DNA of 62,868 nt, the filler included, from Globobulimina sp. (taxonomy: Eukaryota), in the NCBI GenBank assembly GCA_003354225.1. It is 31 parts of 31 records of this genome, joined end to end, with 100 filler letters (N's around TTAATTAATTAA, not from the genome) between each part and the next. Parts side by side here need not be neighbours in the genome. Positions count along the whole stretch, not along the records: positions 2,033 to 3,964 come from PIVH01010451.1; 30 more parts are not named here. One strand, 5' to 3'. The first letter of the stretch is position 1. Every line of letters starts with the position of its first letter. Shown piece by piece: positions 1 to 58,908 of this stretch. The notes under the pieces are model-generated. The model was given only the letters and a program-made list of their open reading frames with translations, was not told the DNA's origin and did not search any database. A program made the position numbers and the translations under genes.

Positions 1-252
1 CAACAGTTTGTTTACGACACTGTTTAGATGGACTCTGAAAAAAGTGCAAGTTTTACAATATTCAAAAACAATATATAAGATACTGTTCAGCAAAACTTAG
101 TATACCGAATATTGTTTTGATACGTATATCGCATATTCGCATTTCTGCCTTTGACTGTAAAATTTTAAAATCTGTTTTCCATCTTTAGATAATTCTCGAG
201 CAACAATTTTAATTGTTTTATAAAGACTTACTATTAAACTAATCCAATAAGA

Positions 253-699
253 ATGGTTTGTTGTCGACCGTGCTATAAAGGTCCGTGCGGATTTATAACT
301 TTAGTTATTTGGTGGATTCTTGGTGGATTTGTAGCTGGTGTTGCATGGTATTTCCTTGGATGTCTATTGTGCTGTTTCCCAGGTATTGGTAAATCATTGC
401 GTAGAATTGGATGTTTAGCTTTTGATCCTTTATCAAAACAAGTGGAGGTGCAGTTATGTGACGATGAATGCGTTGTTTGTTGTTTATGCGAAAATTGTTG
501 TAATGTGGTATGGATAATATTTTGTGGGTGGTGGTTATTTTTGGTGCATTTATTGTGTGCAATTTTATGTTTACCATTAATGCTTTGTTGTATGCCATTT
601 TCATCCATTCACTGGAAATTTGCAAAGCTATCATTATGGCCAGTTGGTCTTAAATTATTTCAAGAAAACAAACAAGAAACACAACAATCTTTTGTTTAA
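253..699 (+). CDS. Cys-rich YccF-domain (inner membrane component) protein
   Basis: Two hydrophobic repeats resembling the YccF consensus: VIWWILGGF...LAFDP and NVVWIIFCGWWL...WKFAKLSLWPVG. Confidence 0.7.
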   Translation: MVCCRPCYKGPCGFITLVIWWILGGFVAGVAWYFLGCLLCCFPGIGKSLRRIGCLAFDPLSKQVEVQLCDDECVVCCLCENCCNVVWIIFCGWWLFLVHLLCAILCLPLMLCCMPFSSIHWKFAKLSLWPVGLKLFQENKQETQQSFV

Positions 700-2032: not shown

Positions 2033-2392
2033 CTTTTTTTATTTTGACGATCAAAACTAACCTTTTTTTTTCTTCTACTCTAAGAACCCATATACAAGCA
2101 AGGAATACTAATAAATAGTGTACACAAACAATACCTCAATATATTAATTTTCAGAGATAGTGCATCATTAAGTCACAATAACTCCAATAAATGATAGCAA
2201 ACTGTCAAACCAAATTGTTGCTATCACAGAAACGAATGTTGCTATATCTCACAAATGACGATAAAATGCAAAAGTATGCAATGTAATAAAACATTAAAGG
2301 ATATCTCATGTCAAAGAAGAAAACAAGAAAAAAAAAAGAAAAAGACTAATAAGTAATAATATTAATACAGTTCTGCTAATATCAGCGAGATA

Positions 2393-2584
2393 TTACTGAT
2401 TCGATTTTCTTTTATTTTCTAATTTTGCCATCAAACGATGTGCCACATCTCTCCAAATTCCTAACGGTGTCATATCATGTCTCGCATCCAGATCTTGCGG
2501 TGTTTTGTAAGTCGGTTCAAAAATTCTGTATTCATTTTGATTTGAGGAAGATGTTGAATTTGATTTGTGTTTGGATTTTGATTT
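2393..2584 (-). pseudogene. C-terminal coding fragment cut off at the left TIR of a transposon
   Basis: The ORF (KSKSKHK...WRDVAHRLMAKLENKRKSNQ*) has no ATG at its 5' end and begins at the element boundary. Confidence 0.35.
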
Positions 2585-2964
2585 CACAGTGTGTCAACCC
2601 CCATTCGCTGAACACCAGAACCGAACACCAGTGTTCGGTTTTTTAAATTCTAAATAGCTCCTGCAATATTTGCTTGATTGTAATGTTACTTTGCACGCAT
2701 TGACATTATGATACTAGGATGGTCGTTACGTGGGGGATTTTGAATATTTTCATTTGATCTTGAGAAACGCTGTCATGACTTCCATGGTAGTCACTCAAAA
2801 ACTTAAGCACTGAAAATTTTGAACATTTTGACAATTGTAAACATCTAAAATCAGCAACATTTTTTTGTCTGTCAGATGAGTTAACTGTCAGATTTAGATT
2901 TTATTTTCATGAAATATCAACTTTTGAATATGTATTTGTCACACATTGTAATATAAAAAAAAAT

Positions 2965-3013
2965 ACAATGGCCAATTCATTACAATGGTCAATTCATTAC
3001 AATGACCAATTCA
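2965..3013 (+). repeat. About 3 x 17-bp tandem repeat (ACAATGGCCAATTCATT)
   Basis: Near-identical units visible directly. Confidence 0.85.
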
Positions 3014-3112
3014 TCGATGCCAAATTTCTGTCTCATTGCTTGCCGTTACCACCACATAGATTCGCGATTTCTGCCTCATTGTTTGCCCCAATCACAATAT
3101 GTTTTTCTTTAT

Positions 3113-3153
3113 TTGTTTGCGCCCGAAATTTCGGGCGCAAACAACCAAACTAA
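3113..3153 (+). mobile_element. Helitron-like 3' terminus (GC-rich palindrome followed by CTAA|T)
   Basis: Perfect 32-bp palindrome TTGTTTGCGCCCGAAA|TTTCGGGCGCAAACAA (3113-3144); the GC core ends 11 nt before CTAA (3150-3153), which is followed by T. Confidence 0.55.
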
Positions 3154-3712
3154 TTTGTTTACAATAAAAGACTTCGTATGCGATAAAATGGATTGTAAAG
3201 TGCATCACAATATGATATTGAACAGAAATAAATAAGATTTTCTTTCATCTGTTTCTGTATTTTTATCAATATTGCTGTTATTTTTAACATATAGATAGAT
3301 GTTTAAAACAATATTCACCATTGCAATTGTCTTTGCATTGACACATCAAGCAGGTGAATACTTAATTTAAATCTGACACATTGTATCAAATATAAATCTG
3401 ACACATTGTAGCATTGGTGAGTAAAACAATTTAATTTTTTTTCAAAAATTGCATATTTTTGAAAAATTGTTATTTTCAAAAAATGCATAATGGCAGATAT
3501 ATATACCCACAGTACAAAGTATATGCATGCTGTAGTACTCAAGCTGGCGAATATTTTTATAGTTTTGGAAATGCAAGAAGATGATAGCAAATTCGTCATG
3601 AAAGATTATGCACAGCATTGAAGGAGAAATGCGATATGACATTTTTAAAGGGAAAAATCAAAAAAATCGATATTTTTTGGTGTGTTCAGCGAAGGGGGGT
3701 TGACACACTGTG

Positions 3713-3964
3713 TCTTCCATACACTACTTTTAAATTATTGTTTTTGAAAAACTCAATTAATACTGGTGTTTTTTGCTTCATTTTTGAACCAATTCCAATT
3801 TGTTGGTTATCATTCCAACCGTTAACATATAGCAATCCGTCATCTGTAATCCATAACAAATTGCTGGCCAAGCCACCGCCAAAAATATCTTTGATGTTAC
3901 AAATATTGTGATTTATTCTGGTTAAATTTACACCGTTTTCTCGATTATAGAAGCCAGCACTGAA
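3713..3964 (-). pseudogene. RCC1-repeat protein fragment truncated by the TIR element
   Basis: Frame open from the contig edge; LLWITDDGLLYVNGWNDNQQIGIG...TPVLIEFF is an RCC1-like repeat; it reads into the TIR and stops. Confidence 0.6.
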
Positions 3965-10162: not shown

Positions 10163-12019
10163 CGAAGATTTCTTAAATATTTAATGTCTTTACCAATTCC
10201 TCAATTTAAAAATATTAAAATTAATGAAGAAATTTTGAATTCTTTGCCTGAAGGAGGAATTCCCGAATTCATTGTATCAAAAAAATGCATAAATATTTTG
10301 TCCGGTTTCACCGCAATAAAATCAAACTTAAATATCAAATCATACGCGAACATGGCAATAAATCTGACATTGCACAAATTCCACGACAATTTAGAGAAAT
10401 TCCCAACAATCGCGGACGTGGAAGAGGCCGAGGTCGAAACCATAGATACAAACCCTTCCAATCCCGATATAGATACAAAAACATCGGAAGAAGGCGTGGT
10501 ATTTCACGTGGCCGAGCCCGTGGAACTGAAAAATGTCAACGCCGCGGACGTGGACGAGGACGCGGAAGAGGCCGTTATTCAAAACAAATCCGTGGATATA
10601 ACCCACGGCGTACGCGATATAGACGGCGTTATAGCAGATACTCAAAAAACGCGCGCAACAAAAGACAAATATATTGATAATGGTCATATTATTTGTCATT
10701 TCGATATGACCATTAAAATACACATTAGCTGCTATAATATCGTCGAAAATATCATATTAAATGTCATCAAAACGCATTCATCCAAATACCACAACCGATC
10801 TACCACAAAAATTAATAATTTATGTCCTCCGCTACATAGAATCCTTAACATGTCAACAAAAGAACGCCTCTCCACTATAAATAATAAGAAATACATCAAA
10901 TCACAAAAATTAGCATTTAAAAAATTAGTTAAAATATATAATAAACAACATCTGAAATATCTGACTATTAATAAATGCACACTTCAACAAACAATGGATT
11001 TGAATGACAAATATCAACAATTTTTAGATTATATTAAATGTAAACAATACAAACACCTCAAAACTCTGCGCGTAGTCAACAAACCAACCGCTTCCATCGA
11101 AGATATCCAAATATTGAGTAACATCAATAACATTTTCCCAGATCTATATATCGGAAATTCCGACAAAAATCTGGGTCCAATTATTAATATAAAAAATGAT
11201 TGGAACAATCTTAACATTGATACCATTGAAAAATGCAAATATTACAAAACAATCTCAGTCAATGAACAAGAAACGACTTGGATTACTGATGAAATATTAG
11301 TAAATATCCATCATTTAATATTGGAAATTTTAAAAAATGAAAATTTCAAACATTTATTTGTAAATCGCAAGCGAATAATTAATAAAATACACACAATTTT
11401 CTATAATCTGCCTACACATCAACCAATATCGAAGGCGCACAAATTTAATACTGATAAAACACCAAAATTAGCCGCCAGACCACTCATTAACTGCGAGAAT
11501 TGTATATATGTTCCCACGTCGACGTGGAGTGGCGAACATAGCCACAAATTACTTTTATTAATTTGTAAGAAGTTTAATTTTTACACAGACAAATCAAATG
11601 TCATTGAATTAACATCTATGATTTTCAAAACTAATCAATTTATTTCAAATAATAACATCGATGTAAATGATTTAATATTAATCAATGCAGACATGAAAGA
11701 TATGTACAACACGCTTTCATGGACTTATTTAAAATCTGCCATCACATTTTGTAGAAATTATTTAGACGACAATGAATTCCCTGACATTGAATTTGAGTGT
11801 CACCTAAAAATCATAAACTTACATCAACACAACACATATTTCACCGCATTTAAAGGTAAATATTTAATTCAACAATCAACACAAATACAAGGATTGGCAG
11901 GAGCCGGTAAGCGATGCCGACTCATTATTACTTGCGCTGAAATTATGAATAAAAAACGTATCCAATTACTATATATTATGCTTATTGCATTAATGTGCAA
12001 AACAAATGATACTTGGTGA
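10163..12019 (+). mobile_element. Penelope-like retroelement reverse transcriptase ORF, partial and probably decayed
   Basis: PLE-type motifs SDKNLGPII, PISKAHK...RPLIN, ADMKDMY, NTYFTAFKGKYLIQ...QG; the ORF stops at a TGA near where the YxDD motif is expected. Confidence 0.75.
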
Positions 12020-24384: not shown

Positions 24385-26316
24385 TGTAAATGTAAAGATA
24401 AAAAGTCTTTTGAGTCAAGGTTTTTATCACCACTTTCTCCTTCAACCGCCGCCTTTCCTTTTGAAGCATGGGTCCGTTGTCCGAGTCGTTGCAATCGTGC
24501 AACATCTAAGTCCTCGTCAGTGTCAGTGCCATCGGTCGAAGATTGATCGTAGTCGAAATTGGCACCTGTAGTCGCATTATATTGGTTATTGTCAATGGTG
24601 ATACGTAGAGCATGTCGCAATTCATATTCATTTATTATTGGCGGCTCGGGCAACGGGCCATGATTAGTATGGTGGTCGCGCGCTGACTGCGCATTATATT
24701 GAGCATTATTTGAATGGGATGCGGCAATCTGATATTCCTGAGATGCTGCAATCTGTTTTTGCGGCGTTGATGAGTTTGTCGATGATGAGTTTGTCGATGA
24801 ACTGCAACATGTCATCGAATCGCAGCATTCGTCATCATTTAGGATGGCATTATAAAAAGAATCAAAGTCATTATTCGTCGATATCGTATCATTCAGAGCA
24901 TTATCGTAAACATCATGGCATTCATCATTACAATTTATAGCATGGTCCACAGCAACGGTACGTGATACCGGTAATGGATGGGACGCATAGAATATGTCGC
25001 TATCATAGCCAGTGTCACACAATCCATTGGTTATGATTTGCGAATGAAAGTGAGAGAGATACAGTGCCTCAATGTCATGGGTATGTATTTTACGTCTCTC
25101 TCTGTCCTCATCCACCACCACTCCCTTTGTACTATCTCTATATAGGCCGTTGCGGGACAGGTAGTCCGCGATAATATTTTCGTAGCCAGGCACATAACTG
25201 GCGGTAAAGTCGTATTCTTGGAGTCGTACCGCCCAACGATAGAGCTTCCCAGCTCGAAAATTCTTGGCGCGGTTGAATAATTCACGCAAATTCTTATGAT
25301 CGGTGTGTACATGAAAGTGGTTGCCGAGGAGTAGATAGCGCCACTTTTCTACCATGAAAACAACAGCGAACACCTCCTGTTCACTTATATGCCAATTTTG
25401 CTGTGTTGGCGTGAAGGATTTCGACGCAAATTCAATAGGATGGAACACGCCGTCGTCATCGTATTGGCCCACAACGGCACCGATCCCATTAATACTCGCA
25501 TCACAAAACACGTGTATTTGGCGCAATGGGTCTGGATGGATCAGAATGTCCGCATTCTGTATTAAGGTTTTTAAGGATTGGAATGCGTTTTTACGTATTT
25601 CTGTCATTTCGTACGGTGTCCGGGCCTCTAATAACTGGTATAATGGCTTGGCAATATCATGCAAGTCCGGAATAAATTTGTGTAAATAGGCCACCAGACC
25701 CAGGAAAGTCTGCATTTGTGCCTTAGTGCATGGCTCTGGCACGTTAAGTACTTTCCGTTTATATTTATCTGTGGGTCGATAGCCATATTTATCCACAAAA
25801 TAACCCAAATACTCAGTTTCCTGCGCCGCGAAGATGCATTTATCGATTCGCAGCTTGATATTATTGGATTTTATTCGTTCAAAGACAATTTTTAGATGCT
25901 CCAGGTGCTCCGCAATGGTATCGCTCAAAATGGCGATGTCATCAATATAAACAACAACAAAGTCCAAGTCCGCAAATATCCGTTGCATAACACGTTGGAA
26001 CACGGCCGGCGCGTTTTTCAGACCCATTGGCATCACAGTCCATTGGTATAACACACCGTCAAACTCAAAGGCGGTGAGTGGCTTAGTTTCATCGTCCAAC
26101 GGTATGTGCCAATATCCGGCCTTCATATTCAATGACGAGACATAGCGTTTTTGCCGGAAACTCTGCAATAATTTGCGGATATTAGGTATCGGGAACTTGT
26201 CCGCCTTCGTGAGATGATTCAATGCGCGGAAATCGAAGACAAGCCGGACGTCGCCGGTCTTCTTAGGTCGCGGAAATAAGCTCGAACGCCACTCACTGTG
26301 GCTTTCCTCGATACGT
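24385..26316 (-). mobile_element. Ty3/Gypsy LTR retrotransposon pol (RT + RNase H), partial
   Basis: RLVFDFRALN, MPMGLKNAPAVFQR, YIDD, FLGLVAY, CDAS, SEQE, TDHKNL, ADYLSR; higher GC than neighbouring contigs. Confidence 0.95.
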
Positions 26317-26416: not shown

Positions 26417-28123
26417 GATCGTATCACAAATCAGCGACAAAGGGTTCATAGTCAGCCGCGGGAAAAAGCGATTGTGATAAGTACGTAATCCATTTTTGAT
26501 CATAGACGTCTGCGATTTGTTTAATGCTTTGAAAAAAGATTTGTTTGTAAACGTCTTCAGATCCAATGGGTGTTCGTCATCGACAGAGACTCGGTCCACG
26601 ATATCAATCAGCAAAGAGCTTAAATCCTTTTCTGTCTCTTTGGTTAATAAGAAATAGCGCAATAAGTCGCGATCATGCTTGATAATGCCGGGACATTCCT
26701 GCTCCATATATTGACTGAAGATCCTCTCGTCTTCTTTGCTGAAAGTGGAGGGTTTAAATATAGGAACTAATAATTCATACTGACATTTGCTAATATACTG
26801 TGTTAATAAGTAGCCAATGGACGGGTATTCCTCTCGCAATTTGGGGCCATGAATGACTTCGTTAAATGCCATGAATTCTTCGTCGCATTTCTCCTCTTCG
26901 CAGAAGGTGGTGAATATATTTATTATTTGATTGCTGATACCGTTGCAGCGCAGACATTCTTCGATATCTTCCACAGAACGACCCACTTTCTTCCTCATTA
27001 TGGAAGTGGGGACCACAAATAGTTGCAAATTGGGTAATGTGTTGATCTCTGTTGCTGTGAACTTGTCATCGTATGCTTTATATGCACGCCTATGGCCACC
27101 TGCTGTGACAGCCATGTCATTGGCTGTGATGCGACTGTTAATATTCATATCTGTATACGTCGAGTTTCGTATATGTGCACTTTTCAAACCTAATATATTG
27201 CGTAAACTATTTACAAATTTGAATGCTTTGCTGCTATTCCAATCAAATATGGATGCGATATTTTCAATGATGCCGCTGTCGCCTTCTTCAAACACTTCAA
27301 TATCATCAATTAATTGGTCTTCGCCATATTCCTCGTCCTTGCAGAAACGGACAAATTCATCCAATTCATCATTGGTGTATTCATTCAATCGCTTCAACGC
27401 TGATTTTATTTGATTTAAATCGCCGGCATGTACTGCTATATATTCATTGTCATCATTGCGTTGTGACTCATTATTGAGGTTCTCTGCAGATATATTATTA
27501 TTGTTATATGCTTGTAATTGATTAATAATATCTTGAACCAGTGATGGATTGGAGTCAAAATCTAATTGTTTGTCTAATGTGATTAACAAATCTTTGATCT
27601 GCTGAGGATTGGATGGGTCCATATCAATATCCATTGGTAGTTGCAAAGAGGAGGCTGGCTCTGGCGACTCTCGCTCGATAATCTGTTTAATGGTTATCTG
27701 TCGCGGTAAGCCACTCCATTCCAATTGTTTTGCATCATCATATTCAATTTGTATCTCTTGTTTGCTTTCTGGCTTATTATTGGCATTGGAATCATAATAA
27801 GATTGCGGGGTGATGAGTTTTCGAAGTGTGAGCAGTTGACCATCTTTATTATATTTATGGTCTTTAAGCCATTGCGATATTGACGACTCGTCCTCTGTGT
27901 CATTTATGTCATCAATTAATGCATCAAAATCAAACTGATCATGACGTATGTTTTGTTTTTGTATATATAGTGTTTGTTGTGAGTTTTTTCGAAACACAAA
28001 ATATCGAACCTCTTCCTCTATAGCCCATTCTTGAAGGTCATTAGCAACATTTTCACTGATTTCTTTCGATTCTGCCAATTGTTTCCAAACATTGGATAGC
28101 TGAGAGTACTGAGACTCTGCCAT
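26417..28123 (-). CDS. Hypothetical protein with repeated acidic EE(Y/F)xxDxLIDDI modules, 3' partial; probable in-frame intron 27935-28009
   Basis: Long ORF; a 75-nt GT..AG segment interrupts the first module. Confidence 0.65.
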
Positions 28124-28448
28124 GGAATTTTAGTAACTTTAACGTTTTTTTTTTTTACTACAATTAACTTTTTGGTTTGCTTTTTGATCTTTGTACACAA
28201 CAGTGTCTTATTACTATTTTTGAAACGGTGTGGTATTTTTTTTTTTGCAAATAATGTAAATTTACCAATTTCCCTAAAAACTGGAATTTCCGAATATTTC
28301 AAAAATGAGCAATTTTGCTAAAATGCAAAAAAATCAATATTTCGGAATNNNNNNNNNNNNNNNNNNNNNNNNNNNNNNNNNNNNNNNNNNNNTTAATTAA
28401 TTAANNNNNNNNNNNNNNNNNNNNNNNNNNNNNNNNNNNNNNNNNNNN

Positions 28449-34541: not shown

Positions 34542-35306
34542 CACCAAATCCCCTTCATTCAGACTAACATTGTAATGCAATGACTTGGCCATATTTATTG
34601 CTTGAGGCACGTAATAATTTTCTAAAATTCCATGTAATTCTCGCGTTACGATATCCGATTCAATGATGTTGTCATTTATGTATTTTATTATCAGTGCTTT
34701 CAATCCAATAAACCCAAACTTTCTAAAAGCATCACCGCCGACAATGCGAATGCTTTGAACTGTCGACATACCTTTTATTACCGCTAAATGTGTTTGTATT
34801 TTGTGATTTTGCCATTGATCAAATAATAGGTTTTGAACGTTTGTTGAAAGTTTAATTAAATATTCTTGTTTTATCTCAAATAATACGGGATGTGGCTGTG
34901 GTGGCAGTCCTATACTGGCAATACACGTATTGTTATATGTGCTGATTAAAGCATTGCCGCCGACGACAGACATAACCACCGCTACATTATCATATAAATC
35001 AATATTTGATAAATACACAGGTCCTGTTCTAACCGCTACATTATTATTTAAATCAATATTTGATGAATACACAGGTCCTTTAATGATGACTATATCACCG
35101 ATTTCAAACTTTTTTGACAATACTTTCTGATCTTTATGTGATACATTGGATGCATGAGCTGGTTGATAGGATTTGAATTTGATACGTTTGATGAATTTGA
35201 TACGTTTGAATTTGATACGTTTGTAGATGCTTGAATTTGATACGTTTGATGCATTACATTGGATAATACCAATCAAAAACGCATACAACAAAAACAATAA
35301 CTCCAT
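34542..35306 (-). CDS. Secreted hypothetical protein with internal repeats, 3' partial
   Basis: Signal peptide; 54-bp duplication (GPVYxSNIDLxxNVAV x2); 15-18-bp repeats. Confidence 0.55.
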
Positions 35307-35409: not shown

Positions 35410-36472
35410 ATGTTATCACTTATATTACCAACAATACTAATTCAATCTACATTGGCAAATAATTGCGCAGCCATTCAAATAAACTCTGCATATGAACCTG
35501 TTCCATTGAATCTATGTTCATTCGACTCCAGTAATTTTATTGGAGATGGCCCATTTTCATCTGGTTATTATTGCAGCGATAATAATAATAATACTGTGAT
35601 TTATAATGCTTATAATACAACTGCTTGCAGCGGAGATCCATATTATTCATATTCATATTCATGTACATCTGACAATAATCCTTTATACTGCAATTGTGAC
35701 AAAAACGCTGATAATTGTTCAACTGCAATAAAATCATACAATGACTGTAACGATACTCATCGATATTACTCAAAAATTTTGGTTTTGGATCTATGCGTTG
35801 AGACTGATAACAGCACCGCATCATCGCAAACAATAAAATGTGGTTCGAATAACTTGAAATATATTGAATATGACGCAACTGATTGCAATCATGGTTCTGT
35901 GCTTGATGAGCACACCAATTTCATTTATGAATATTGCAACAATTGTGATGTATGTAGCGGATATTGGAATATTCAATGTACAAATATGGACTTATCAGAA
36001 ACACTAAGTACATATCAATTGATCTTAGTCATTATCTGTCCGATTGCATTGTGTTTCTGTGTATGTATTGTGTCATTGGTATTATTCAAACGCAGCAAAC
36101 GTATCAATGCTGACAACAAATTATCGATATCGCCAGAGGCAGAGCCAAAAGGTGTAGCAATGGAGAAAGTCATGGAAATTGTCAAATATGTGGACAGTGA
36201 CAATAGTAAACCACAACCGCCTGAATATGAGGATGTTGAGCAACGAAAATTGAGTTTGAAAAACCTAATTCAAAAACATAATTACTATGAAACACACAAT
36301 TATGTGGAAATTGAGCCTGAAGTCGTGCATTTGTATCATGATAATGTAACTTTGGGAGATACGCATATCAGTACAACAGTACCTATATTGGTAGTATTCA
36401 TAGGTTTGATCTCAATAATGCCAGGTATTATAATTGTACTTTGTGTAAAAAAAGCACCTAACAGATCAATAA
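35410..36472 (+). CDS. Cys-rich membrane-anchored surface protein, same family as 992-1713, 3' partial
   Basis: Signal peptide; shared Cys spacing; TM segment LILVIICPIALCFCVCIVSLVLF. Confidence 0.7.
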
Positions 36473-46808: not shown

Positions 46809-48658
46809 ATGGCAAACAAAGGGCCTGCTCTCCAGGCTGGTTATGGAAATGGAGGAATTGAACCGATGGATCAATTCGATAAATTATCAGATAAGATTTC
46901 AAATAGTTTAAAAAATTTAGAATTTACACGGGATATGTTACGTCAATTAGCAGACAACGAGAGAAAATCTGCAAAATCCATAGCAACCATATTGAATCAG
47001 AAAAATAAATCATTGCGATTTTCCGTGGTAGATCAAGCAATACAAAATTATTGGAAAAAACAAGAATCAAATCGTCGACATTTTGCAGAAGCATTACAAA
47101 CAAAAATCGTCGATGAATTACACAATTTTATATCAGCGGCAGCCGATAAAAAAAAGAAATTAACCAAAGAGAATAGCAAAATACAGAGAAATTTTATTGA
47201 ATGTAAGAAAGAGACGATCAAATTAAAACAAATCGGTTTAAAAGAATGGCAAAAATTAGAAGAACAAATAAATAAAAATGATCAACATAAGAAAACCAAT
47301 AAATTGCAGAAGATCAAAGATTTAAAGCCGCTCCAAGATAAATGCAGTAAAGCTTTTAATAAATACGAATTATATATACTTAAATTAAATGAATTAGAAC
47401 AAATTAATCACGAACAATGCATCCAAATTGGCAAAACATTGCATGAATCGCAAGAATATGCTTCAAATCGATTATCAATGCATTATAATATGACAGTTTC
47501 GTCAAAGAAATTTATGGATGATTTTATTGCCAAAAATAAATCCATTGTACAATCGAAAGCGCCGCCATTAAATGATATATTATGGCGATGGCTGACATAT
47601 CCTAAAAACCACCAAGCTGTCACCACTTTGCCTTGCAGCAGCAAGCAAGTGTTGAATAAAAATGAAATCGGACAGCAATTTAAACGAAGGGTTGGCAAAG
47701 ATTACCAAGAAAGTAAATATTTACAAGCACCCATTGTTCACAATGAAAGTAAGGAAAATGCGAGCAACACTCCGCGGTCTCCGCAGCAGAGCAATAATAA
47801 CAACAACAACAACAAAATAAGCAAAAAGAAAAAGAAAGAAAAAAAAGAAAAAAAAAAGAAAAAAAAGAACAATGTTCCTGTTGCTGTTGCTGTTGCTGTT
47901 CCTGTTGCTGTTGTTGATGATAAATGGGACGTTGATTTTGGTGATGTTGATTTTGGTGATGATGGTCAACAAATTGACGATAAGGATAAGGATAAGAATG
48001 TTTTTGAGAATAAGGAGAGTGAGCATAAGGAGAGTGATAACAATGCGTTTGATAACACTGCTTTTGGTAACACTGACTTTGCTAACAATGACTTTGGAGA
48101 TGATACTTTTGGGAATGACAATACTGACACCTTTGATATTGATAATAAGGAGAATAAGGATGACAAAGAGAAGGACAATGCAGATGTTGATAACAAGGAT
48201 GCTAATTTTAACAATTTCGGCTTTGATGATAACTTTGCGGATTTTAATGATGGCAATAAAGATTTAGAGATTGTCAATGATAATGCAACCAATGGAGCAT
48301 CCTTTGGTATTGATAGCCATTGGAATACAAATTTTGATGAAAATGCCTTTGCAGTGACTGATAATAACAACAATAATGCCAATAATCAACAAGACATAGA
48401 TGCATTGTTTGCAGCATCTGAAGCAAATGATATATTCGCAACAACAACAACAACAACAACCACAACAATCAATGGCGATGATAATAATAATAATAAGAAG
48501 AAAAAGAATGATGCGCTATTTCCTGATGATTTCGGTGGAGATGGTTTTGATTTTGATGCGGTTGAAACAAGGAATGATGTAATTGACGCAGGAAAAGGAT
48601 CGGATAATGATATAAATATAAATATAAATAGTGATGGCGGTGGAGGTGGAGGTGGCTT
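46809..48658 (+). CDS. F-BAR-like coiled-coil protein with acidic DxF-rich disordered tail, 3' partial
   Basis: Helical N-terminus (LADNERKSAKSI...RRHFAEALQTKIVDELHNF); many DF/DxF motifs typical of endocytic adaptor ligands. Confidence 0.55.
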
Positions 48659-57429: not shown

Positions 57430-58710
57430 TCAAAAAAGTTTACATAATGTTATGATGTTAATTTTATAAATTAAACACTCAAATATTAAAGTCATCAATT
57501 CGTGTCGTATCATCTCCTTCAAATAACTCATCACTGAGATCACACATTTTTTTGTTATCTTGGAATTCTTGTCTTGTGATCTTATTGCTTTTCCATTTAG
57601 AAATAGGCTGTATACCAATATCTGTTTCGTGCTTCGTATTAGCAGTTGTTTTATCTTGTTGTTGTTTGGAATAACAATAATATATTCAATTATACATAAC
57701 AAAATTAAAAAAAAAAGAATGGAAAAAAAAATTAATAATAACGCCCAGTGTGGTACCATCAACAATAACCAATCTTCATTTCCTCCCAACTGCGCATCTA
57801 TTAATTGATCCCATTCCTCTCTCAGATTAACATTATCAACGGATTGCCGATGCGTTACAGCTTTCCATTGGGAATTGTTTACTTGCAAAATATCAATTTG
57901 CTTTTGTAACTGCTCCATTTGGTTTTGTTTGCCATATTTTACCTCTTTCAAATCCCAGGTTAATTGCATAAGTTTACTGTTTGAATCAGCTCTTCTTTTT
58001 GATAATTCCGCGTCATTTATCTGCTTGATTTCTCGCAAACGTTGTTGTATATCAACAATTATGCGATCTTGTTTGCAATATTTGGGGCTCAGTTTTTGCT
58101 TTAAATCATGTATAAGTGTTTCTTGTCGTTGAATTTCTTTGTGATAATTTGAAATTGTGAGCTCTGTTTTGTTCGCATTATACGCATCCATTACCATTTG
58201 TACTTTTTGTGTTTGTGCTATCAATTGAGACTCACATTCTTTTTTAAAATCATCAATGGAATGAATGATCTCATTGTTCAGAATATACACTTTATTTCCA
58301 TTTGGTTCATTGTCAAAAAGTTCATCCATTTCCACAAAGAATAATCGATGCGAGTTTCCACGCGCTCTACTCCACGCGTGGGCCCCTTTATTCACAATAA
58401 TCCACGTGTATTCATTGTACTTTTCAGTGGTTACTATTAAATACCAATCTGTTTTTGCTTTATTGTATACGATAATGTGATTCTGTGTTAATTTAAACGG
58501 TTCAAACGTGTCATGCCAAGTCTTTAGCCAATTAAATCCGATAAAATCATAAAAGCCATTTACAGATTTGTATTGGGAATGTTGAATTTTGTATTGTTTG
58601 GTGAGATTCAATTTCTTGAACCAAATTTTATCAATTATTGGGTCGAAATTAAATTCTAGCTCTAATGTTACAGGTGCTGAGTCTGCAGACACACTAATAT
58701 TGTCCATCAT
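57430..58710 (-). CDS. Coiled-coil protein with a C-terminal TM segment
   Basis: 426-aa ORF with heptad region and hydrophobic helix. Confidence 0.6.
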   Translation of the reverse strand: MMDNISVSADSAPVTLELEFNFDPIIDKIWFKKLNLTKQYKIQHSQYKSVNGFYDFIGFNWLKTWHDTFEPFKLTQNHIIVYNKAKTDWYLIVTTEKYNEYTWIIVNKGAHAWSRARGNSHRLFFVEMDELFDNEPNGNKVYILNNEIIHSIDDFKKECESQLIAQTQKVQMVMDAYNANKTELTISNYHKEIQRQETLIHDLKQKLSPKYCKQDRIIVDIQQRLREIKQINDAELSKRRADSNSKLMQLTWDLKEVKYGKQNQMEQLQKQIDILQVNNSQWKAVTHRQSVDNVNLREEWDQLIDAQLGGNEDWLLLMVPHWALLLIFFSILFFLILLCIIEYIIVIPNNNKIKQLLIRSTKQILVYSLFLNGKAIRSQDKNSKITKKCVISVMSYLKEMIRHELMTLIFECLIYKINIITLCKLF

Positions 58711-58908
58711 TGATTGACTAAAACAGAAAACAGCTGAACAATATATTCAGATAGACAACCCCATCCCACTGTATACCGAATATTTCTGTTACAATCCCAA
58801 CAAACGAGNNNNNNNNNNNNNNNNNNNNNNNNNNNNNNNNNNNNNNNNNNNNTTAATTAATTAANNNNNNNNNNNNNNNNNNNNNNNNNNNNNNNNNNNN
58901 NNNNNNNN

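Follow-up and report, generated by a model that had tools for sequence, protein, structure and literature searches.

A probable non-autonomous DNA transposon with CACAGTG-starting inverted ends in a short contig of Globobulimina sp.

In the genome assembly of Globobulimina sp. (GCA_003354225.1), contig PIVH01010451.1 carries a segment of 1128 bp whose terminal inverted repeats (TIRs) both start with CACAGTG, the heptamer of the V(D)J recombination signal sequence (RSS). With a probability of about 0.7, we consider this segment to be a non-autonomous cut-and-paste (class II, TIR) DNA transposon or a relic of such an element, with ends of a type that several superfamilies share. The stretch of DNA that was analysed (hereafter, the window) is 62,868 bases long and consists of 31 unrelated contigs of 1930-1932 bp each, connected by linkers of the form N44-TTAATTAATTAA-N44, so that genes separated by a linker have no genomic neighbourhood in common; the contig of the element (1932 bp) takes up positions 2033-3964. 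The G+C content is about 30% throughout the window, and the genes found in it are read with the standard code and have ordinary GT-AG introns of about 28-95 nt.

Inverted ends and coding capacity

The two arms, of 31 nt each, match at 30 positions, the only mismatch (A versus C) being located at arm position 19. A search of the window with the 31-mer arm, allowing up to three mismatches, returned two places, both of them ends of the element (none of 100 shuffles gave two matches). An earlier, sequence-only reading of this DNA had described a 31-bp TIR with a 30/31 match and CACAGTG at the start of both arms, and the direct check of the sequence together with the shuffles bears this description out. 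When each of the 31 contigs was compared with itself, the TIR of the element was the only strong inverted pair, one other pair being weak (64 nt, 77%). The arms are 1066 nt apart, the sequence between them is not palindromic, and in a single-strand fold of the element the arms alone pair. Exact matches to the 12-nt end word YACARTGTGTSA occur at five places in the window, and every one of them falls within the element (two at its ends and three internal, on the minus strand); with up to one mismatch there are 10 matches versus 3.06 expected, a number reached by none of 100 shuffles.

The seven internal frames of the element contain no Pfam family; no tRNA was found in it either, and Rfam gave sub-threshold matches only, none at the gathering score. 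In having terminal inverted repeats and no transposase gene, the element is like a miniature inverted-repeat transposable element. As for the rest of the window, no transposase, RAG1-core included, was found in 51 of the 73 window frames of at least 110 aa (the 22 omitted mostly overlap a longer frame), which agrees with the sequence-only reading; among the scanned frames, the only mobile-element protein is the reverse transcriptase of a retrotransposon, encoded on a different contig. We suppose that a DDE transposase encoded elsewhere would bind the 31-bp arms and possibly also the subterminal GAACAC repeats, cut at the CAC...GTG ends and reinsert the element. One such insertion would have hit a coding exon of a gene with RCC1 repeats. 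The element is a mosaic: an inner repeat (about 2886-3410), distantly related to it or unrelated, is nested inside, and three extra end-like motifs are present.

Junctions, the empty site and copies elsewhere

Public sequencing runs, here designated X1, X2, X3 and X4, were compared with the contig of the element. The share of the contig's sampled words is 85% in X1 and 22% in X2, which comes from another study and is labelled as a different organism (B), and is small in X3 to X5, which come from the sample of X1; no RNA run is listed as containing the contig. Contigs of X1 cross both junctions of the element with the flanks without a single difference (2287-2611 and 3440-3874). The right flank is matched from 3713 onwards in the other three runs, namely to 3920 in X2 (4 differences in 208), to 3964 in X3 (4 in 252) and to 3762 in X4 (0 in 50), and at 3712/3713, to the base, the contigs of all three part from the window and pass into one identical other sequence. 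The right edge of the element is thereby fixed to the base, and the description of a non-coding, TIR-bounded, transposon-like insertion, already given by the sequence-only reading, gains from these three runs. In a hand reading of the minus strand of this other sequence, the RCC1 frame stays open for 10 more codons (...VYGR, then, past the edge, SGFRYNIVIC). Judging by this frame, the sequence looks like the uninterrupted allele, or a close paralogue, of the RCC1 gene, and another haplotype or strain apparently lacks the insertion.

The same comparison bears on what belongs to the element. The TG of the right-hand CACTGTG is absent from the empty allele (...CCAGA, followed at the edge by TCTTCC) and is therefore part of the element, the target being devoid of TA. 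This speaks against a Tc1/mariner element whose true ends would be CAGTG beside TA; in favour of such an origin is that CAGTG is the classical end of Tc1 and Tc3. The would-be flanking dinucleotides are CA and TG, with no TA duplication, and the candidate was rejected. An element resembling the internal eliminated sequences (IES) of ciliates, or an intron-generating one, would restore the gene upon precise removal, and the length of 1128 nt (3 x 376), with minus-strand frames in register on both sides, is in line with this. We give the register no weight, because it arises by chance one time in three. Joining of 2584 to 3713 keeps the frame but does not recreate the empty allele, no in-register GT...AG pair exists at the ends (beyond the far end, the first AG lies near 2532 and would shift the frame), and the standard code and ordinary introns of the window genes count against such a system. 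All three of these origins together are, in our opinion, extremely improbable.

Several observations weigh against a transposon. No target-site duplication (TSD) of any length from 2 to 9 nt was found: the flanks GATTT and TCTTC have 2 of 5 positions in common, and TT/TC, TTT/TCT (2 of 3) and ATTT/TCTT all fail. The sequence-only reading had expected 5 bp for a Transib/RAG-like element and 3-4 bp for Chapaev, and the locus offers neither. The empty-site sequence differs from the left flank present in the window and occurs nowhere in the window. The right end has a single context in X1 among the matches listed, the contig being unbroken through the end, and among the same matches no run contig spans the whole element, so the contiguity of both arms rests on the original assembly. 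None of the 31 contigs contains a second copy of the TIR; in collections of metagenome, genome and viral contigs the 31-mer arm (with one N) had no match, and the 18-mer end gave two matches in the metagenome contigs, a number within chance.

Since the empty site is unlike the left flank, a simple insertion is undemonstrated, and the contig is not a plain combination of a gene and an insertion; the TSD of the original insertion is unreadable because the two flanks are not from one site. Most likely, the contig joins the ends of different copies, through assembly or inter-copy recombination, or represents a rearranged locus, and the missing TSD might be explained in this way. The empty site was located for the right edge only, and none was found for the left one. 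Matches of about 30-35 nt ending at 2578-2584 in X2, X3 and X4 were considered as a left-edge empty site and rejected because they are seated on the GATTTT microsatellite; they run on differently in each run. In X1 the depth is 4.56 in the left flank versus 22.7 in the contig starting from 2582, the overlap being exactly 30 nt, which suggests that the left end also occurs in one or more other contexts, with the same three T's before CAC. Besides, X1 contains two diverged partial copies, corresponding to 2640-2763 (16 differences) and 3440-3605 (11 differences and 11 gap letters), both of which then continue unlike the window; there is no second complete copy in this run among the matches listed. 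In X2, X3 and X4, positions 2618-2747 and 3463-3657, and hence the arms, are without contig cover, which is not evidence of absence.

These observations could also be taken to mean that the segment is not mobile at all, being either an artefact of the assembly of a repeat-rich, unevenly covered genome or a one-off rearrangement with inverted ends. The contig is just 1932 bp long in a window that is a string of such contigs, its interior is split into repeat pieces with depths from 1.27 to 247.7, and the lack of a spanning contig among the matches listed, of a TSD and of flanks from one empty site would all follow. Nevertheless, we hold this to be improbable, and the arguments are as follows. 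Each junction is present in an independent run-level contig with 0 differences; arms of 31 nt with one mismatch, lying 1066 nt apart, would be unlike an amplification fold-back; the similarity of the other allele stops at the very last base of the arm; and a like end caps an inverted-repeat element on an unrelated contig.

The last argument refers to the locus L002, one of the two metagenome matches of the 18-mer end; in the genome and viral contig collections the 18-mer had none. The other match, L001, is due to chance, as it lies inside bacterial open reading frames (ORFs) and has no inverted partner. L002 (524 to about 903) is a foldback element, about 390 bp in length, whose two 155-nt arms are 93% alike. 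At its outer tip it has the same 18 nt (CACAGTGTGTCAACCCCC) with which the element in the window starts, the other tip being TACAGTG...GTCAA; the contig has 39% G+C and is apparently non-coding. Like the element, it has no visible TSD; unlike it, it has arms of 155 nt, and no similarity extends past the 18 nt. Since the number of matches is within chance, the kinship is argued from the position of the match alone, at the outer tip of an inverted repeat, and on this ground L002 is probably a distant relative of the element. The 13-mer end was not found in the literature searched, and the literature that joins CACAGTG with terminal inverted repeats and transposons is all on RAG, RSS or Transib.

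Superfamily and the likeness to recombination signals

Judged by sequence, the ends place the element in the broad EnSpm/CACTA-Mirage-Chapaev-Transib group and no further. According to PMC12730594, this group, also called 'CMCT', is characterized by CA...TG ends and TSDs of 2-5 bp. As CA...TG is common to the whole of it, the ends cannot separate its families. An affiliation with the CACTA-Mirage-Chapaev (CMC) branch, i.e., EnSpm/CACTA, Chapaev, Mirage or related families (Plavaka, ESTA, Lanisha), is quite possible, the odds being somewhat short of even; in this case a TSD of 2-4 bp would be expected, and the subterminal repeats would bind the transposase. Short subterminal GAACAC repeats adjoin the left arm of the element, and among microbial eukaryotes Transib is less frequent than CMC families. 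EnSpm/CACTA, Mirage and Chapaev have the same 5'-CA...TG-3' termini as the element (CAC...GTG in its case, as fungal EnSpm families are described in PMC12730594) and, like it, short repeats beside an arm, whereas their defining 2-5 bp duplication is not readable at the present locus. Within the 2-4 bp range, TTT and TCT agree at two of three positions. End positions 4-5 are AG in the element and TA in classical CACTA. The weight not given to CMC or to the Transib/RAG-like affiliation discussed below goes to other superfamilies or to artefact.

The sequence-only reading had proposed an undescribed Transib/RAG-like family with RSS-like ends. If so, the element would be a non-autonomous partner of a Transib/RAG-like transposase, its ends would consist of the heptamer CACAGTG and, some 23 nt further on, an A-rich nonamer, and it would move with nick-hairpin cutting and a 5-bp duplication. 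Excerpts of the description of Transib (Kapitonov and Jurka, 2005; PMC1131882) give a 5-bp TSD, a transposase of about 700 aa and a 38-bp end composed of CACAATG, a 23-bp variable spacer and AAAAAAATC, heptamer positions 1-3 and nonamer positions 5-6 being essential. Among these features, the heptamer alone was recognized here. The element starts with the exact RSS heptamer, which is also a 6/7 match to the Transib CACAATG, with the essential CAC included; its 31-nt arm is near in length to the 38-nt Transib consensus TIR, and TACAATG is the reading of its internal end-like motifs. Nor does the host range stand in the way, since RAG-like transposons in a protist and Transib in bacteria have already been reported (PMC10462144, in excerpt).

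As for the nonamer, the left arm has a 22-nt spacer followed by ACCAGAACC, a 7/9 match to the RSS nonamer ACAAAAACC, and the right arm has a 24-nt spacer followed by ACCAAAAAA, a 6/9 match, exactly as stated by the sequence-only reading. Per position, the window background is 0.40% for matches of at least 7/9 and 2.2% for those of at least 6/9. With six spacers allowed (11-13 and 22-24), simple arithmetic gives chances of about 2.4% (left arm) and about 13% (right arm), for spacers and thresholds that were picked post hoc, with the data already seen. The two words are mildly unusual in this A+T-rich window. The right arm also contains AAAAATATC, an 8/9 match to the Transib nonamer AAAAAAATC, but with a spacer of 28.

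Comparison of the two arms gives the opposite of what this proposal implies. The nonamer-like words lie outside the conserved arm: the arms match through the 'spacer' and diverge exactly at the 'nonamer', whereas a nonamer needed for function predicts the reverse. At nonamer position 5, which is called essential in the description of Transib (PMC1131882), G is found in the left word; spacers of 22 and 24 do not make a 12/23 pair; and no conserved A-rich nonamer with A at positions 5 and 6 is found at 12 or 23 nt in the element, nor does L002 have an A-rich 9-mer at these distances. There is no 5-bp TSD visible at the locus, no RAG1-core or other transposase domain in the scanned frames of the window, and the CA...TG ends are not specific to Transib. 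None of the tests that could be run supports the specific claim of a Transib/RAG-type family with RSS-like ends, the nonamer, a defining feature, having failed, and the proposed family is not established; we regard a Transib/RAG-like affiliation as unlikely. A more specific version, in which the element is a recently active partner of an undescribed Transib- or RAG1-like transposase and the RSS heptamer is part of the wider end word YACARTGTGTSA, is decidedly unlikely; the 18-nt end of L002 would in this version be a result of deep conservation of the binding site or of horizontal transfer.

Transib also has known non-autonomous copies, yet no 5-bp duplication is visible at the locus of the element, no conserved nonamer lies 23 nt from its heptamer, its target is not G+C-rich, and the scanned frames contain no transposase of about 700 aa. 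With the TIRs of the RAG-like ProtoRAG and RAGL-B, as excerpted in PMC10462144, the element shares conservation right after the heptamer and the lack of a convincing nonamer; in contrast to them, where TR2 of 9-10 bp starts adenine-rich, its next bases are TGTCAACCCCC, RAG1L/RAG2L genes and a length asymmetry of about 10 bp are lacking, and a 5-bp duplication is not visible. With V(D)J RSSs the heptamer is identical, but the spacers (22 and 24), the nonamers (7/9 and 6/9, the left one being mismatched at an essential position) and the very nature of the ends, which are inverted repeats of a mobile-looking element, are different. Going by the bases compared, the RSS likeness seems to reside in the first seven of them, and the element therefore looks like an ordinary cut-and-paste relic.

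If the partner enzyme were Transib/RAG-like after all, this would be a family of a microbial eukaryote whose ends carry the vertebrate RSS heptamer, and it would help to trace the evolution of RSS-type ends. Since protist RAG-like and bacterial Transib elements are already in print (PMC10462144, in excerpt), the known picture would be extended rather than changed. Regardless of the enzyme, the locus documents a gene-disrupting insertion polymorphism in an RCC1-repeat gene; the filled and empty alleles, found in one sample, are a hint of fairly recent movement. It also cautions that a heptamer match alone is insufficient to identify a RAG-type element.

Interior, flanks and other contigs of the window

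Coordinates of the element, of its parts and of the flanking features are collected in Table 1.

Table 1. Features of the element and its flanks (positions in the window; a dot means that no strand is assigned)
Feature	Position	Strand	Basis or remark
Whole TIR-bounded element	2585..3712	.	1128 bp, non-coding, repeat mosaic
Left terminal inverted repeat, starts CACAGTG	2585..2615	+	X1 contig 2287-2611 spans the flank-TIR junction, 0 differences
Right terminal inverted repeat, starts CACAGTG	3682..3712	-	X1 contig 3440-3874, 0 differences
Left subterminal GAACAC(C)A repeats, 2 direct and 1 inverted	2609..2640	+	Sequence reading
Inner nested repeat, own inverted ends TGTCAGATTTA... / ...TAAATCTGACA	about 2886..3410	.	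Two inverted pairs
Internal copy of end motif YACARTGTGTSA, reads TACAATGTGTGA	2939..2950	-	Exact-match search
Three tandem 17-nt units TACAATGGCCAATTCAT	2964..3014	+	Tandem-repeat search
G+C-rich perfect palindrome	3108..3149	.	Inverted pair; 3113-3144 100% over 32 nt
Internal end-motif copy TACAATGTGTCA, first of 25-nt tandem pair	3374..3385	-	Exact match and direct repeat
Internal end-motif copy TACAATGTGTCA, second of tandem pair, right edge of inner repeat	3399..3410	-	Exact match and direct repeat
Left flank, open frame, 63 codons and stop	2393..2584	-	Lys/Ser-rich at start
GATTTT microsatellite abutting left TIR	2550..2584	+	Attracts spurious short matches from other runs
Right flank, RCC1-repeat reading frame	3713..3964	-	Cut by contig end (3964) and element (3713)

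The last two of the GAACAC(C)A copies form a 22-nt hairpin (2619-2640, self-inverted at 91%), and these repeats are possible, putative transposase-binding sites. The inner repeat occurs in other runs without the outer arms, namely in X2 contigs (2904-3122 and 3191-3409) and in an X3 contig from 2886. Its 18-mer gave 14 loci in the viral contigs, all of which are chance matches, none being like the window past 18 nt; 13 of the 14 belong to one phage gene, as their flanks are identical, and the remaining one comes from a giant-virus bin. The three internal end-motif sites may be either extra binding sites or the ends of related nested elements. The palindrome is the most deeply covered short segment in the compared runs (depth 247.7 in X1, bin 3073-3137) and is therefore probably a repeat module of wide occurrence. 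Short segments around the palindrome and the repeated motif TGCCTCATTG (3008-3137) have a depth of 226-248 in X1 and X3, versus 5-12 in the flanks, and probably represent a very abundant short genomic repeat.

The right flank matches the Pfam family RCC1 (PF00415) with an E-value of 8.8e-07 at profile positions 1-38 of 50, the match ending at the edge of the element; a protein search with this fragment in the 'longer' and 'near' length classes gave no scored relative. The frame of the left flank, which is in phase with the RCC1 frame on the other side of the element, contains no Pfam family. Compared with 1.84 billion representative proteins, it had six matches at E <= 0.001, none informative and none with an RCC1 domain; the best of them, a repetitive protein of 2002 aa, aligned many times at 29-31% over 26-28 aa. 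These matches are silent on whether the left flank belongs to the RCC1 gene. At least two variants of the RCC1 flank (3713-3964) exist, with a similarity of about 98.4%, and two of the differences, 3779 C>A and 3845 T>G, are common to X2 and X3, though these runs are labelled as different organisms.

On the other contigs of the window, the open frame of 643 aa at 24387-26315 (minus strand) encodes reverse transcriptase and RNase H of the type of retrotransposons with long terminal repeats; the G+C content of its contig is about 39%. For a housekeeping enzyme encoded on another contig, the closest database relative is 69% identical, followed by EukProt protist sequences (56-61%); this points to a poorly sampled eukaryote and is consistent with, though no proof of, a protist. 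A number of long frames (400-618 aa), including 10163-12016, 46809-48656, 26417-28129, 57433-58746 and others, have no Pfam family even at E 0.5, which fits a poorly sampled lineage. The open frame at 238-696 (plus strand) contains a YccF inner-membrane domain (E 7e-16), which is better known from bacteria. Finally, the weak inverted pair revealed by the self-comparison of the contigs (35237-35298 and 36048-36107, about 750 bp apart) has the ends TTGATACGTTTGATG and may represent an old TIR element from a different family.

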